Virus record (IMG/VR): IMGVR_UViG_2541047883_000004
Origin: a virus
Lineage: Duplodnaviria > Heunggongvirae > Uroviricota > Caudoviricetes
DNA length: 42,149 nt
Reading direction: 5' to 3' (one strand)
Shown: one piece after another, positions 21,627 to 27,509 of the stretch
How the letters are laid out: each line of letters starts with the position of its first letter
Position numbering within the stretch: position 1 is the first letter of the stretch
The notes under the pieces: model-generated
What the model was told of the DNA's origin: nothing
Databases searched by the model: none
What the model saw: only the letters and a program-made list of their open reading frames with translations
Translations under genes and position numbers: made by a program

Positions 21627-21842
21627 TCACTTTCTTAAATCTAACGATAGACGGCTAACATTTAAGTATTGTGAAATATTATCAAATGTAATCATCATTG
21701 ATTTACAAAAGATACATTTTGCCCCGAAAGGATTCCTGTCAGAAACATCAAAAGATGATGTTCTATACTGAGAACCATGGCAACACGGGCATCTAAAGTG
21801 AATATGGTTTGTAATATTATCTACCTCAAAGTGCCACAACAT
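21627..21842 (-). CDS. Possible zinc-ribbon small protein (CPCC ... CIFC)
   Basis: ORF with four Cys in ribbon spacing, ending directly before the terminator. It overlaps the csp 3' end, so the start is uncertain. Confidence 0.3.
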
Positions 21843-22038
21843 GAACAGCCGCGGGGCCTTTAGGTCCGTTCTCAATACCAAATTCGACTTCCTGATTCTC
21901 AGTTAACGTTTTGAAATCGTTGCTCTGAATAGCTGAGAAATGGACAAACACATCTTTGCTACCATCTTTCGGCGTGATGAAACCAAAACCTTTTTCAGGG
22001 TTAAACCATTTCACTAAACCAGTCATTTTGTTAGACAT
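21826..22038 (-). CDS. cspI: Cold-shock protein, CspA family (CspI-like)
   Basis: [38 protein letters not shown] ... with RNP1/RNP2 motifs; long AT-rich 5' leader (22042-22400) typical of csp genes. Confidence 0.8.
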
Positions 22039-22401
22039 CATTATTACCTTTTGAAGAAGTTAGCCCTTGGGCAGAATGGTCCGAAAAAAAATATCAGAGA
22101 GAAAAACCAACAAGGAAATCTCAAGAGGTACAAATAATAAAATTATAACAATGACTGCTTCAGATAATTTTGTAACAAACCAGAACACCATTAACGCATG
22201 ATTAACCAACCATAGCAAGGATTACTTTTGTAAAGAAAAACACACGAATGAAACAATAGCTTTATTTATTAATAAAACGTGTCATTCTGTCTAATGACCT
22301 TTTATCTTACCCTTAAGATTTCAAGGATTTTGACTCATGGAAGAGTCCTTTTTATTTAAATTTCACATTCAGCGCTAAAAATAATCCGATTTAATATTAA
22401 T

Positions 22402-23429
<1,028 letters not shown>

Positions 23430-23542
23430 GGATATTTATCAGGATTTATCGGCTTCAAATCCCCGGATATGTTAAATCTTACCTCACCAGTGATGGGCAC
23501 TGGCGGGAGGAGGATGTCAATCTGATAAACACAGAGGCGACT

Positions 23543-23803
23543 ATGGATTACACAAATCTACCTAAACAAACTTTTGCTGATTTAATCGCACTCAGGCAAG
23601 CAGTCGTAGCTCTAATCAACTTGTTGCCGGAGAAGGAAAAGGAATTAGTTAAAGCGCTTCTTAACAGAACTGCCGCCGATTTTTCATCATATCCACTGAC
23701 AGATGACCTTGCGGACCTTCCTGAATTAATTGCAGCGTCCGCCAATAAGCTTACTGAAGAGATTTACCCTCCTCAAAAATCTTCACAAAATTCCTGCGAG
23801 TAA
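23543..23803 (+). CDS. Hypothetical acidic helical protein, antisense to the late operon
   Basis: 86-aa ORF with SD GAGG; convergent with, and overlapping by about 50 nt, the 190-aa minus-strand ORF. Confidence 0.3.
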   Translation: MDYTNLPKQTFADLIALRQAVVALINLLPEKEKELVKALLNRTAADFSSYPLTDDLADLPELIAASANKLTEEIYPPQKSSQNSCE

Positions 23804-24302
23804 CTTCAATGCAATAATCGTAAAACGCCGCAAACTGCTCATCGCGGCGTTTTTTTTCATCTTCAGAAGGAATCAGCACCGACAATTTTTTATTCAGATC
23901 AGCGACGCTGCCCTCCAGTTTTTCAATGGGCGATTCAATATCATCTTTTTCTGACCGCAATGCCGTCGGTGGCGTCTTCAGAGAACCAGTAATTCTTCCC
24001 GGTAGCTTTCCTTTGTAGGTTATCCACACATTCTGCGCCTCTAAAATTATGGGGCGCTTTTCCGGCGACTGCTCATCCCCTTCACATAACCCGGCAGCAA
24101 CATCCAGGAAGACCTGTCTGATGCTCCTTCTGGCTGCTGCCTCATAAAACTCCAGCGCGGCACCTTCAACACGGTCCAGCGAGATGTCCAGGTCAAAAAT
24201 TTCACCGTCAAAGTGTTTTTTGTCCCGTAAGGCTACAGTTACCGCCACTTTATTCTCAAAATTGCGAACTCCTTTCACAACCAGTTCATAGTCTTGAGTC
24301 AT
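23751..24302 (-). CDS. Hypothetical protein inserted between holin and endolysin
   Basis: About 183 aa from MTQDYELVVKG; the ATG lies 5 nt after the holin stop. Acidic, no TM segment, no motif I recognise. Confidence 0.5.
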   Translation of the reverse strand: MTQDYELVVKGVRNFENKVAVTVALRDKKHFDGEIFDLDISLDRVEGAALEFYEAAARRSIRQVFLDVAAGLCEGDEQSPEKRPIILEAQNVWITYKGKLPGRITGSLKTPPTALRSEKDDIESPIEKLEGSVADLNKKLSVLIPSEDEKKRRDEQFAAFYDYCIEVTRRNFVKIFEEGKSLQ

Positions 24303-24306
24303 TGGA

Positions 24307-24522
24307 TTACTCTCTTCTCGCAACCTTACGCCTGTCTTCTTTAATCTTGAAATAAAGGTTTGTCAGATACGTCAGCATGCCAAATACCAGACTACCCAAT
24401 ACACCTATTGCCGCCCACTGTGAGGGCGTGACTTTATCGAGCAACTGTAAAAACCAGTAGCCAGCACTGCCTGCAGAGGTGCTGTAGGCGATGCCCGTTG
24501 TTAACTTATCCATGGATTTCAT
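24307..24522 (-). CDS. S: Class II holin / pinholin (phage 21 S-like) with dual-start motif MKSM
   Basis: 71 aa [71 protein letters not shown], near-colinear with S21/EssD as recalled; SD GGAGGTG. Confidence 0.85.
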
Positions 24523-24712: not shown

Positions 24713-25426
24713 CTAAGAAAATCTTGATAAATATTGGTGCGGAGGCACACCAAAATATCCTCTAAAAACACTTACAAAATATGATGCATTGTCATACCCG
24801 CATATTCCCGCCACCTTGCCGACAGTATGGTTACTGTAGATCAATAATCTTTGCGCCATCATCATTCGTTCTTCAAGAATTAATTTACTAAACGATAATC
24901 CTTCGTCTTTTAATTTTCTTTTTAACAAACTCTCGCTCATATATAATCTTGAAGATATATCACAAAGTCTCCATGACGCTGAGATATCCGAGTGAATAAT
25001 AGCCTTAACTTTACAACCTAAGCTATTAAGACTTCCGAACAAAAAACTTTGCACTATTTTCTCTGAAGATAAGACAGCAAGACATGCAAGTGATATTTGA
25101 TTTCTAACTACATCCACGGTTTTGCTATCACAATTCAAGCATGCAACCAAGTTCCTTAACAATGAAAAATCTTCACATTCTACTATCAAGTATGACGGAT
25201 AAAACCTTCTTACAGAAAAAGGTGAGAGTGTGTAGTTTTTAAAGAAATCATTAACTGTTTTCTCCTCAACATCTACGATCATTAGATGATCTGTATTTGA
25301 CGAAAAAAGATCTTTTAAATTGTATTCGATGAGGACAGCACTTCCTTTTTTAAACAAAATATCTTCTTTACCAATTCGGACACCAAACGAGTTCAACACC
25401 AAAATGACAGAACATATGTATGGCAT
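24713..25426 (-). CDS. AraC-family transcriptional regulator (AppY-like)
   Basis: N-terminus MPYICSVILV resembles AppY (MDYVCSVVF) as recalled; C-terminal AraC HTH (... GICGYDNASYFVSVFRGYFGVPPHQY); SD GGTGG. AT-rich codon usage. Confidence 0.8.
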   Translation of the reverse strand: MPYICSVILVLNSFGVRIGKEDILFKKGSAVLIEYNLKDLFSSNTDHLMIVDVEEKTVNDFFKNYTLSPFSVRRFYPSYLIVECEDFSLLRNLVACLNCDSKTVDVVRNQISLACLAVLSSEKIVQSFLFGSLNSLGCKVKAIIHSDISASWRLCDISSRLYMSESLLKRKLKDEGLSFSKLILEERMMMAQRLLIYSNHTVGKVAGICGYDNASYFVSVFRGYFGVPPHQYLSRFS

Positions 25427-25832
25427 ATTATCCACCTGATATCACTGGGGTTACACCAGGTAAGTATAGGTGGAAAATCAATATTCGCCAGTTCAACAAT
25501 AAGGAAAATCTCATTGCATCACAACTATAAAACCATGTGTTTAACTCACAAAAAACAAATCATTAAACTAATCTGTTATATTATAATAGCTGCGTGCAAT
25601 AATAATATTATATACTCTTAATATTCACTTGAAATATCTTCATATAAAAACAGATTGAATAAAATCTTTTGGGGCTGGTATGTTTACCAACATTAAATTG
25701 CATCTCAATGTTTTCTTCAGCGTGAACAGGATTTTTATACAAACTGACACTATGGGTATCATAGTGTAGTTTTTACGATTGTAAATATCCTGCATACAGG
25801 AACTCATCACTTTCAGATGATATCGCATACAG

Positions 25833-26792
25833 TTAATTCACCATCAGTCTTAGAGCCAGTTCTTCCGGATAGGGATCGAAGTAATTCTGTGTAAGCAAGT
25901 AATCATTAGGATACTCACCCAGATAATGCTTCAGCAGAGTCAACGGCGCAAGAAGAGGCAATGTGCCAAAGCGATAGTTAAGTATAACCTCGGTCAACTC
26001 TTTACGCTGGCGTGTACTTAAGTAATTACTAAAATACCCCTGTATATGCATCAGCACATTCGTGTGATTTTTACGTGATGCAGGTTTTCTGAGAATCGCC
26101 ATCAGCTTATCACGATACACCTCAAAGTATGATTCAAGGTCCGCCCACTCGTGTATTGCAGCCACAAATGGTCCCATATCTTTATAGCCTGCCTGACTAT
26201 GCGCCAACAACTGAAGCTTATAACGACTATGAAAAGCTAATAACTCTCTTCTTGATAATTTCTCCTTGTAAAGGTGATTGAGCTCATGCAAAGCAAAAAC
26301 TCTTTCAACAAAATTCTCACGAAGCACTGGATCATGTAATCGCCCATCCTCTTCAACCGGTAGCCAGGAAAACTTTTCCATCAAAGTGCTCGTAAATAGT
26401 CCCACTCCATCTTTACGACCTCGATTACCATTTTCATCATAGACACGCACGCGCTCCATGCCACAGCTGGGAGATTTAGCACAAACCACAAACCCCGATA
26501 CATCCTTTAATTTGTGCATATAAGAACGACTAAACTCTGTCATTCTCTCTGTCACATCCTCATTCTGGTCGTGGCTGAAACACATCCGTATATTTCCTTG
26601 CTTCGAGCGCACAAGACGTAGAGCAGGACGCGGAACTGGCAGCCCTATAGCCATTTCCGGACATACTGGTCTGAATGTTACCCATTCCACTAATTTGTCC
26701 ATTAAAAAGTCAGCTCTTTTGTGACCACCATCAAAACGAACAGCAGAACCGGCCAAACAACCGCTGATTCCAATCACAGGTTTTTTTATCAT
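25833..26792 (-). CDS. DUF523 (TudS-like Fe-S) plus DUF1722 fusion protein
   Basis: N-terminal GISGCLAG, VCPE and SPSCG Cys pattern as in DUF523/thiouracil desulfidase proteins; the C-terminal half is DUF1722/YbgA-like; SD GGGAGG. Confidence 0.65.
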   Translation of the reverse strand: MIKKPVIGISGCLAGSAVRFDGGHKRADFLMDKLVEWVTFRPVCPEMAIGLPVPRPALRLVRSKQGNIRMCFSHDQNEDVTERMTEFSRSYMHKLKDVSGFVVCAKSPSCGMERVRVYDENGNRGRKDGVGLFTSTLMEKFSWLPVEEDGRLHDPVLRENFVERVFALHELNHLYKEKLSRRELLAFHSRYKLQLLAHSQAGYKDMGPFVAAIHEWADLESYFEVYRDKLMAILRKPASRKNHTNVLMHIQGYFSNYLSTRQRKELTEVILNYRFGTLPLLAPLTLLKHYLGEYPNDYLLTQNYFDPYPEELALRLMVN

Positions 26793-26984
26793 ATCCTCCC
26801 CCTTGACTAATTCATTAACACATAAACTGTGTAGTGCACGGAATAAATTGCCTTTCTGACGTCATCACTGACAATTTTTCTGTTATGGACTATTCCTAAT
26901 ATAGTATGAAAGTTCTTTAAGTGATCGGTCGTAATCATCTATCTTTCATACTTACTCTCAACTATCAAAAGTACAGGATTGATT

Positions 26985-27509
26985 ATGAAGTTATGGCCTG
27001 TGTTGACTGGCATTGCACTCTCTTTCACTCTTATAGCATGTAAGGCCCCGACACCACCTAAAGGTGTGCAGCCGATTACAAATTTTGACGCCAACCGCTA
27101 CCTCGGAAAATGGTATGAAATAGCTCGCCTCGAGAACCGGTTCGAACGTGGTCTGGAGCAGGTCAGCGCTACTTATGGAAAACGGAACGACGGAGGGATT
27201 CGTGTACTTAACCGTGGATACGATCCAACGAAAAATAAATGGAGCGAGAGCGAAGGTAAAGCATACTTTACTGGAGATACTAAAACTGCAGCGTTGAAGG
27301 TTTCGTTTTTTGGCCCCTTCTATGGTGGCTATAATGTAATCAAACTGGATGATGAGTATAAGTATGCTCTTGTTAGTGGTTCGAACAGAGAATACCTATG
27401 GATTCTGGCAAGGACCCCAACTATTCCAGATAAAGTAAAAGCAGACTATGTGCGAACCGCTCAAAAGTTGGGATTCAATGTCAATGAATTATTATGGGTT
27501 AAACAATAA
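26985..27509 (+). CDS. blc: Outer-membrane lipocalin Blc homologue
   Basis: Lipobox LIAC; motifs NFDANRYLGKWYEIARLENRFERG and KVSFFGPFYGGYNVI match E. coli Blc as recalled; SD AGGA. Confidence 0.85.
   Translation: MKLWPVLTGIALSFTLIACKAPTPPKGVQPITNFDANRYLGKWYEIARLENRFERGLEQVSATYGKRNDGGIRVLNRGYDPTKNKWSESEGKAYFTGDTKTAALKVSFFGPFYGGYNVIKLDDEYKYALVSGSNREYLWILARTPTIPDKVKADYVRTAQKLGFNVNELLWVKQ

Follow-up and report, generated by a model that had tools for sequence, protein, structure and literature searches.

A YdfR/DUF1327 family gene with an in-frame extension and a convergent partner gene in the lysis cassette of an Escherichia coli lambdoid prophage

The DNA analysed here, referred to as the window, is the 42,149-nucleotide IMG/VR virus record IMGVR_UViG_2541047883_000004, a complete lambdoid prophage of Escherichia coli at the Qin site, adjoining rspB, whose sequence is 100% identical in many sequenced strains. 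Its lysis cassette consists of a pinholin (S), a signal-arrest-release (SAR)-type endolysin (R) and a spanin (Rz). The stop codon of the holin and the start codon of the endolysin lie 877 bp apart (23430-24306). This interval contains an open reading frame (ORF) of 183 amino acids on the late strand, together with a convergent plus-strand ORF of 86 amino acids, here called B, that overlaps its 3' end by 53 nt (Table 1). A preliminary description of the locus, made from the letters alone, had given a gap of about 880 bp with the positions of the holin stop and the endolysin start, the two ORFs and their convergent overlap, all of which are confirmed. It had also read the arrangement as a cassette interrupted by an unknown gene, and on this point the comparison with other prophages leads elsewhere, as the late-strand ORF belongs to a catalogued family and occupies the usual place of that family.

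The late-strand ORF as a YdfR family member

Assignment of the 183-residue ORF relies on both sequence and position. The Pfam family DUF1327 (PF07041), whose cut-off is 25 bits, matches the ORF at 143.4 bits and E 2.6e-42, with residues 1-112 aligned to positions 1-92 of the 93 in the model, and the ORF matches phrog_2091 over all of its 183 positions (E 8e-112). Residues 1-74 are 84% identical to YdfR of the Qin prophage of E. coli K-12. The gene is therefore a member of the YdfR/DUF1327 family, by sequence as well as by position, and both it and B are far beyond chance as ORFs. The homology searches and structure predictions proposed in the preliminary description were run for both ORFs and returned YdfR/DUF1327 and phrog_2091 for the longer one, phrog_2572 for the shorter one, and AlphaFold2 (AF2) models. 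A length of 183-190 amino acids had been proposed; since all homologues begin at the methionine encoded by the ATG, 183 is the real length, and the 190-residue reading from the upstream TTG is set aside. The protein is soluble and acidic with a charge of -5.4, and its gene lies on the late strand between S and R, so that the expected co-expression with the lysis genes had been read correctly. In the AF2 model, the predicted local distance difference test (pLDDT) score is 60-84 at residues 1-70 and below 50 at residues 69-123.

The annotation of ydfR genes of this kind is inconsistent. The NCBI Prokaryotic Genome Annotation Pipeline (PGAP) records 23967-24302 (L004 20968-21303 in the coordinates of the RefSeq record) as a YdfR pseudogene 'missing C-terminus', whereas proteins of the identical length of 183 amino acids carry the name 'YdfR family protein' in other NCBI records.

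The S21 pinholin/SAR endolysin cassette is a textbook lysis system, and the window can be compared with two versions of it in K-12. In Qin (essQ-ydfR-rrrQ-rzpQ), ydfR is found between an S21-type holin and an RrrQ-type lysozyme on the strand of the lysis genes, exactly as in the window. The Qin protein (P76160, b1555) differs in that it has 103 amino acids and its gene overlaps the start of rrrQ; the window protein has 183 amino acids with another linker and a 71-residue tail, and its gene is followed by 320 nt that contain the convergent gene. The DLP12 cassette (essD-rrrD-rzpD) shares the logic of pinholin, SAR endolysin and spanin, and its EssD holin is 92% identical to that of the window, but it has no ydfR, its essD and rrrD genes overlap by 1 nt, and its endolysin is of another lineage (RrrD, 165 amino acids, versus 177 in the window). 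In a phage 21-type cassette S21 abuts R21, whereas in the window the two are separated by the 877-bp gap, and R falls outside the R21/RrrD lineage. Because its RrrQ-type endolysin is only 34% identical to RrrD, the window is classified as a different and very common type of cassette rather than as an interrupted phage-21 cassette.

The distribution of ydfR is consistent with this classification. The order holin, YdfR-like protein and lysozyme is annotated in 166 phage records, which include inducible ECOR phages and many phages that encode Shiga toxins (Stx1 and Stx2), and the same order on the late strand is found in PhiR63_1, PhiR12_1, 689R5 and Stx2a_WGPS2. Among complete E. coli genomes, 3578 of 5426 contain the holin-ydfR junction, as detected with a 251-nt probe that spans the junction and for which a coverage of at least 80% was required. 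The ydfR gene is accordingly the standard middle gene of the S21-holin/YdfR/RrrQ-endolysin/Rz cassette in Qin-like and Stx-type lambdoid prophages, and its presence in K-12 Qin, in many lambdoid phages and in this number of genomes contradicts the idea of an interruption. The long form of ydfR accompanied by B is restricted to 311 of the same genomes (∼6%) and is also found, 96-97% identical, in phages PhiR63_1 and 2H10. The preliminary description had named, as an observation that would speak against it, related prophages with the same spacing and a known annotated gene. The annotated gene is indeed present in related prophages, so that the claim to novelty fails for the gene; the exact spacing of ∼880 bp between S and R is limited to the ∼6% of genomes with the long form.

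What lies between S and R varies among related phages, and in other Stx phages this slot holds different cargo. In Stx1_14744 (L007 1600-2950) it contains a DUF1327 protein of 263 amino acids that has an additional domain at its C-terminus, together with a convergent ORF of 233 amino acids, which gave no family match. In Stx2_12E129_PPompW (L008 1650-2690) it contains a 214-residue protein that lacks DUF1327 and begins with a segment resembling the C-terminal tail of the window protein, along with a convergent ORF of phrog_1853.

The 510-bp block and its two coding segments

Comparison with related prophages, which had been suggested as a means to define insertion boundaries, delimits a 510-bp block at 23457-23966. 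The comparators were three short ydfR forms of 116, 114 and 103 amino acids. Homology between the window and the short genes runs from the holin through codon 112 of ydfR, which places the breakpoint at codon 112/113, and it resumes 10-51 nt before the start of R (window position 23439, 23456 or 23480, depending on the comparator). Relative to the 116-residue form, the block stands in place of ∼51 bp. It contains a 71-residue extension in frame with YdfR (designated A), the 86-residue ORF B and the region upstream of B, and the A/B module is slightly richer in AT than its flanks.

The whole length of B matches phrog_2572 (E 4e-53), and the ORF is predicted to encode an acidic cytoplasmic protein (isoelectric point, pI, 4.6) with no signal peptide and no transmembrane segment. 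A Shine-Dalgarno sequence, AGAGG, lies 5 nt upstream of its ATG. The ORF is intact in three lineages at 37-54% amino-acid identity, with a ratio of non-synonymous to synonymous differences (pN/pS) of 0.44-0.59, values that are uncorrected and for which pS is near saturation; these ratios were taken from comparisons between lineages, as close pairs of alleles had too few substitutions to decide. Among alleles of B, indels are in frame and span 2 or 4 codons. AF2 returns a three-helix model with a mean pLDDT of 75.7 from a shallow alignment. Downstream of B, an intrinsic terminator consists of a hairpin (RNA fold -17 kcal/mol, z -3.0) followed by T8, and the eight stem pairs of the hairpin are kept in six of six sequences from three lineages, one of them through a compensatory change from G-C to A-U, while the loop and the flanks diverge. 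From these features of the sequence, B is considered a real, independently terminated gene.

Relatives of B are few. A word-indexed search found close E. coli relatives and one partial match in Salmonella only, and a scan of one genome per species found B in E. coli only. When 1.84 billion representative proteins were scanned with a profile, only two true distant relatives were gained, P0139 (93 amino acids, 49% identity over the aligned part) and P0140 (89 amino acids). Apart from the E. coli proteins and the partial Salmonella match, B has a few divergent kin on metagenome and viral contigs. Neither Pfam nor NCBIfam contains a family that matches B. The label 'DUF1823' that some phage records attach to it was considered and rejected, with the PhiR12_1 allele reaching 15.3 bits against a cut-off of 25 and the ORF of the window giving no match.

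Upstream of B, the segment 23425-23480 forms a nearly invariant block with a candidate B promoter, in which the spacing of the motif TTTATC-17 nt-TATGTT is conserved in three lineages; an alignment of five sequences shows invariant columns in the block. The block is 86% identical over 37 nt to the matching end of the module in L009, where R does not adjoin it. It may serve as the promoter of B, as a translation leader of R or as a recombination joint. The block is equally conserved in Salmonella-type prophages in which the module lies beside terminase genes and no gene starts there, and short ydfR forms that lack B still keep part of it.

The A segment is predicted to form helices at residues 123-143 and 147-182 (AF2 pLDDT 50-67). 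It is homologous to a free-standing gene of 73 amino acids located after Rz in Salmonella-type prophages (BLASTP E 9e-6), with which it shares an E-x-K-R-R-D-E ... K-S-x-Q pattern. The free-standing version comprises nine protein clusters, six of them named Salmonella enterica, which are all 73 amino acids long at 66-99% identity. The frame of A is kept in YdfR forms of 176, 183, 211 and 243 amino acids, and segments resembling A are embedded in longer proteins (214, 263 and 296 amino acids). The retained frame, the constant length of the translationally coupled free-standing gene and the segments within larger proteins together argue that A is translated. A possible BRCT domain in the A region (23754-23960, residues 115-182) arose when the family profile was compared with PDB sequences and matched the BRCT of human PARP-1 (E 8e-4) in a plausible-looking alignment; this match is probably due to chance, because the AF2 model of this region is a helical hairpin and the BRCT pattern is missing from the free-standing A homologues.

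A and B recur as a pair. They are convergent in all three lineages, represented by the window, P0140 and P0139 types, with overlaps of 53-59 nt. In the P0140 type, B lies between an S21-type holin and R and converges on a 243-residue YdfR with an A-like tail. In the P0139 type, the order is Rz/Rz1, a free-standing 73-residue A whose start overlaps the stop of Rz, the convergent B (59-nt overlap) and the small subunit of terminase; the holin and the endolysin of this prophage are unrelated to those of the window. A convergent partner is present in 89 of the 93 viral contigs that contain B (overlap 53, 59 or 174 nt), and the partners are mostly YdfR fusions of 183, 176 or 243 amino acids. Judged from these comparisons, A and B have moved together between two places in the lysis region, and in the window they are fused to YdfR through A; as far as could be found, the module is undescribed as a unit. 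A parallel to B is lambda bor and its DLP12 counterpart borD, a small opposite-strand moron with its own terminator at the lysis end of the late operon, borD being convergent after rzpD. B resembles this class of morons in having its own conserved terminator and an orientation independent of the late operon. It differs in its product, as Bor is a secreted lipoprotein and B a predicted acidic three-helix protein of the cytoplasm, and in overlapping a late-strand partner with which it is co-inherited.

Expression, the RNase E lead and competing explanations

The sole reported biochemical property of YdfR is the binding of RNase E. The K-12 protein was recovered in a bacterial two-hybrid assay and co-purified with Rne 1-598, the catalytic N-terminal half of RNase E; residues 1-72 of YdfR suffice for the interaction, and RNA co-purifies with the protein (PMC13232886, 2026). 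The observation concerns the K-12 protein, and by homology the window protein may share the property, as the RNase E-binding segment is conserved in it. RapZ also binds RNase E's catalytic domain and has no sequence or fold relationship to YdfR. A literature search on DUF1327 returned one incidental mention, and no database assigns a function to the YdfR-A ORF or to B.

The explanation favoured for the locus combines architecture, expression logic and function, and as a whole it is held to be somewhat better than an even bet. The architecture is established: the 3' end of ydfR has been replaced by a 510-bp mobile block that added A in frame and brought in the independently terminated B. The Q-antiterminated late promoter would drive YdfR-A along with S, R and Rz, and the protein would be cytoplasmic. 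B, read in the direction opposite to the late operon from a weak promoter region of its own, would end at the hairpin and T8 within A. B would then be made when late transcription is off, in the lysogen and early in infection, and would be silenced by convergent late transcription. This division, with YdfR-A late and B confined to the absence of late transcription, follows from the anatomy of the locus and is likely. The N-domain would target the host RNA-decay machinery late in infection, acting as an accessory modulator rather than as a lysis effector; by homology to K-12 YdfR, that it engages RNase E or RNA at this stage is a tentative proposal, with the chances somewhat against it. It is speculative, and rather doubtful, that B interacts with the A tail and that the two as a pair couple or restrain the activity of YdfR. 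Going further, A and B may be an undescribed mobile module of enterobacterial lambdoid phages whose interaction gates a late function (YdfR acting on RNase E, or lysis), with convergent transcription as a safety switch, and this is improbable.

Several observations weigh against the favoured explanation. Overexpression of ydfR in K-12 changed few transcripts, was non-toxic and gave no growth phenotype (PMC13232886), and the interaction with RNase E may therefore matter little. The AF2 model of the 183-residue protein is poor, with a mean pLDDT of 57. Between lineages, A is only 24-34% identical with a pN/pS of 0.6-0.7, a weaker conservation than that of B, and the best-conserved motif of A coincides with the terminator hairpin of B; part of the conservation of A may thus reside at the level of RNA, as this motif is encoded by the hairpin. 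Co-inheritance of A and B is not proof of a functional partnership, because physical overlap alone would hold them together. Finally, a generic sigma-70 promoter scan called no promoter for B.

One competing explanation is that YdfR, with or without A, is a cytoplasmic modulator of lysis timing that acts on the pinholin or the SAR endolysin, a logic comparable to that of T4 RIII or P1 LydB; it could, for instance, bind S21-type holins at their basic C-terminal tail. The position of ydfR 5 nt past S and its tight linkage, seen in two thirds of E. coli genomes, to holins of the S21 type are in line with this, as is the pairing of the acidic YdfR-A with a basic holin (pI 9.8). DLP12-type cassettes, however, do without ydfR although their holin is 92% identical, A and B are also found behind Rz in a prophage whose holin and endolysin are unrelated, the overexpression experiment in K-12 gave no phenotype, and the searches returned nothing similar to a known antiholin or holin regulator; a timing role is on balance unlikely. 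The lysis-modulator or late-cargo role suggested in the preliminary description is neither shown nor excluded. A different possibility is that A and B make up a moron, lodged in a cargo slot of variable content within the lysis region, that serves as a toxin-antitoxin system, in superinfection exclusion or in anti-phage defence. The different cargo in the same slot of other Stx phages, the bor-like orientation of B with its own terminator and the slightly raised AT content of the module would fit, but no PADLOC-DB family matched either ORF or the variant cargo proteins at E <= 0.1, and a late-strand A that is usually fused to YdfR is atypical of a defence operon, which leaves defence with a small share of the probability.

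Two further explanations deny that one or the other segment is functional. On the view implied by the PGAP call, the fusion in the long form is dead: the real product would be a YdfR that is truncated or in decay, and residues 113-183 would be meaningless read-through antisense to B. Low AF2 confidence in the linker and tail, the weak selection on A and its overlap with the B terminator agree with that call. A decaying tail would not be expected to keep its frame in four lengths of YdfR and in more than 60 viral contigs, to stand alone as a coupled gene of constant length across 66-99% identity, or to be embedded in three larger proteins, and the same 183-residue protein bears an intact family name in other records; a dead fusion is held to be improbable. 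Similarly, B could be a spurious antisense ORF and the 320 nt from the ydfR stop to the R start an untranslated spacer. The lack of a Pfam or NCBIfam family, the narrow distribution (E. coli proteins, one partial Salmonella match and a few divergent contig relatives), the absence of a strong promoter and the sub-threshold 'DUF1823' label would suit a spurious ORF. Against these stand an ORF kept whole in three lineages at identities as low as 37% and with a pN/pS of ∼0.5, indels in multiples of three, the Shine-Dalgarno sequence, the conserved hairpin downstream and a three-helix model of moderate AF2 confidence, albeit from a shallow alignment, so that a spurious B is the least probable of the explanations considered.

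The favoured reading, in which a YdfR family gene has acquired A and B, concerns a catalogued family member and not a new kind of element, and it is a modest but clean comparative observation. Most E. coli genomes and many Stx phages harbor a conserved ydfR gene annotated without a function amid a textbook lysis cassette; the assignment to YdfR removes the apparent anomaly at this locus and ties the ORF to the RNase E-binding lead, and the A/B module exposes the inconsistent annotation of ydfR. Natural variants, namely the short ydfR, the long ydfR with B, and the free-standing A with B, provide a means to test YdfR during induction, although the copy in the window adds little beyond them. Shiga-toxin phages are relevant in this context, as the release of the toxin is governed by the timing of lysis.

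Coordinates and neighbouring features

The features of the lysis region and of the adjoining interval are collected in Table 1. Inside 23430-24306, Rfam, NCBIfam and PADLOC gave no match.

Table 1. Features of the lysis region and the Q-to-S interval in window coordinates
Feature	Position	Strand	Description
Late-strand ORF, 183 amino acids	23751-24302	-	ATG 5 nt past the holin stop; alternative TTG at 24323 would give 190 amino acids
YdfR/DUF1327 part, residues 1-112	23967-24302	-	beta3-alpha N-domain (∼residues 1-73) and low-confidence linker
A segment, residues 113-183 and stop codon	23751-23966	-	Predicted helical hairpin fused in frame to YdfR; not in short forms
B, 86 amino acids	23543-23803	+	Predicted three-helix protein; PGAP hypothetical protein WP_001557934.1
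Intrinsic terminator of B (hairpin and T8)	23823-23860	+	Within the A coding sequence; 20 nt past the B stop
Conserved block upstream of B	23425-23480	+	Tandem TTTATC; weak promoter-like TTTATC-17 nt-TATGTT; minus strand is the R leader, which lacks a Shine-Dalgarno sequence
S21-type class II holin (pinholin)	24307-24522	-	71 amino acids from the MKSMDK dual-start motif; Pfam PF04971, E 3.3e-34
SAR-type endolysin, RrrQ lineage	22896-23429	-	177 amino acids; PF00959, E 2.6e-24; SAR-like N-terminus; PGAP name rrrQ
Rz (i-spanin, DUF2514)	22402-22899	-	PF10721, E 1.9e-38
Rz1-like ORF	22452-22748		Embedded in Rz; from the ORF list
Terminator-like hairpin	24644-24623	-	Directly upstream of S
AraC-family regulator	24713-25435		Q-to-S cargo; GC 0.32-0.36
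YbgA/DUF1722 protein	25833-26792		Q-to-S cargo
Lipocalin	∼26985-27509	+	Q-to-S cargo

The interval between Q and S (24713-27509), which is the position of stx in Stx phages, harbors cargo of non-phage type. At the other end of the cassette, a cold-shock gene resembling cspI is present just downstream of Rz (21826-22041). The 5' untranslated region of this gene corresponds to a sub-threshold Rfam match to the cspA thermoregulator on the minus strand (22000-22185; E 6e-8 and 39.5 bits, where the gathering score is 78).
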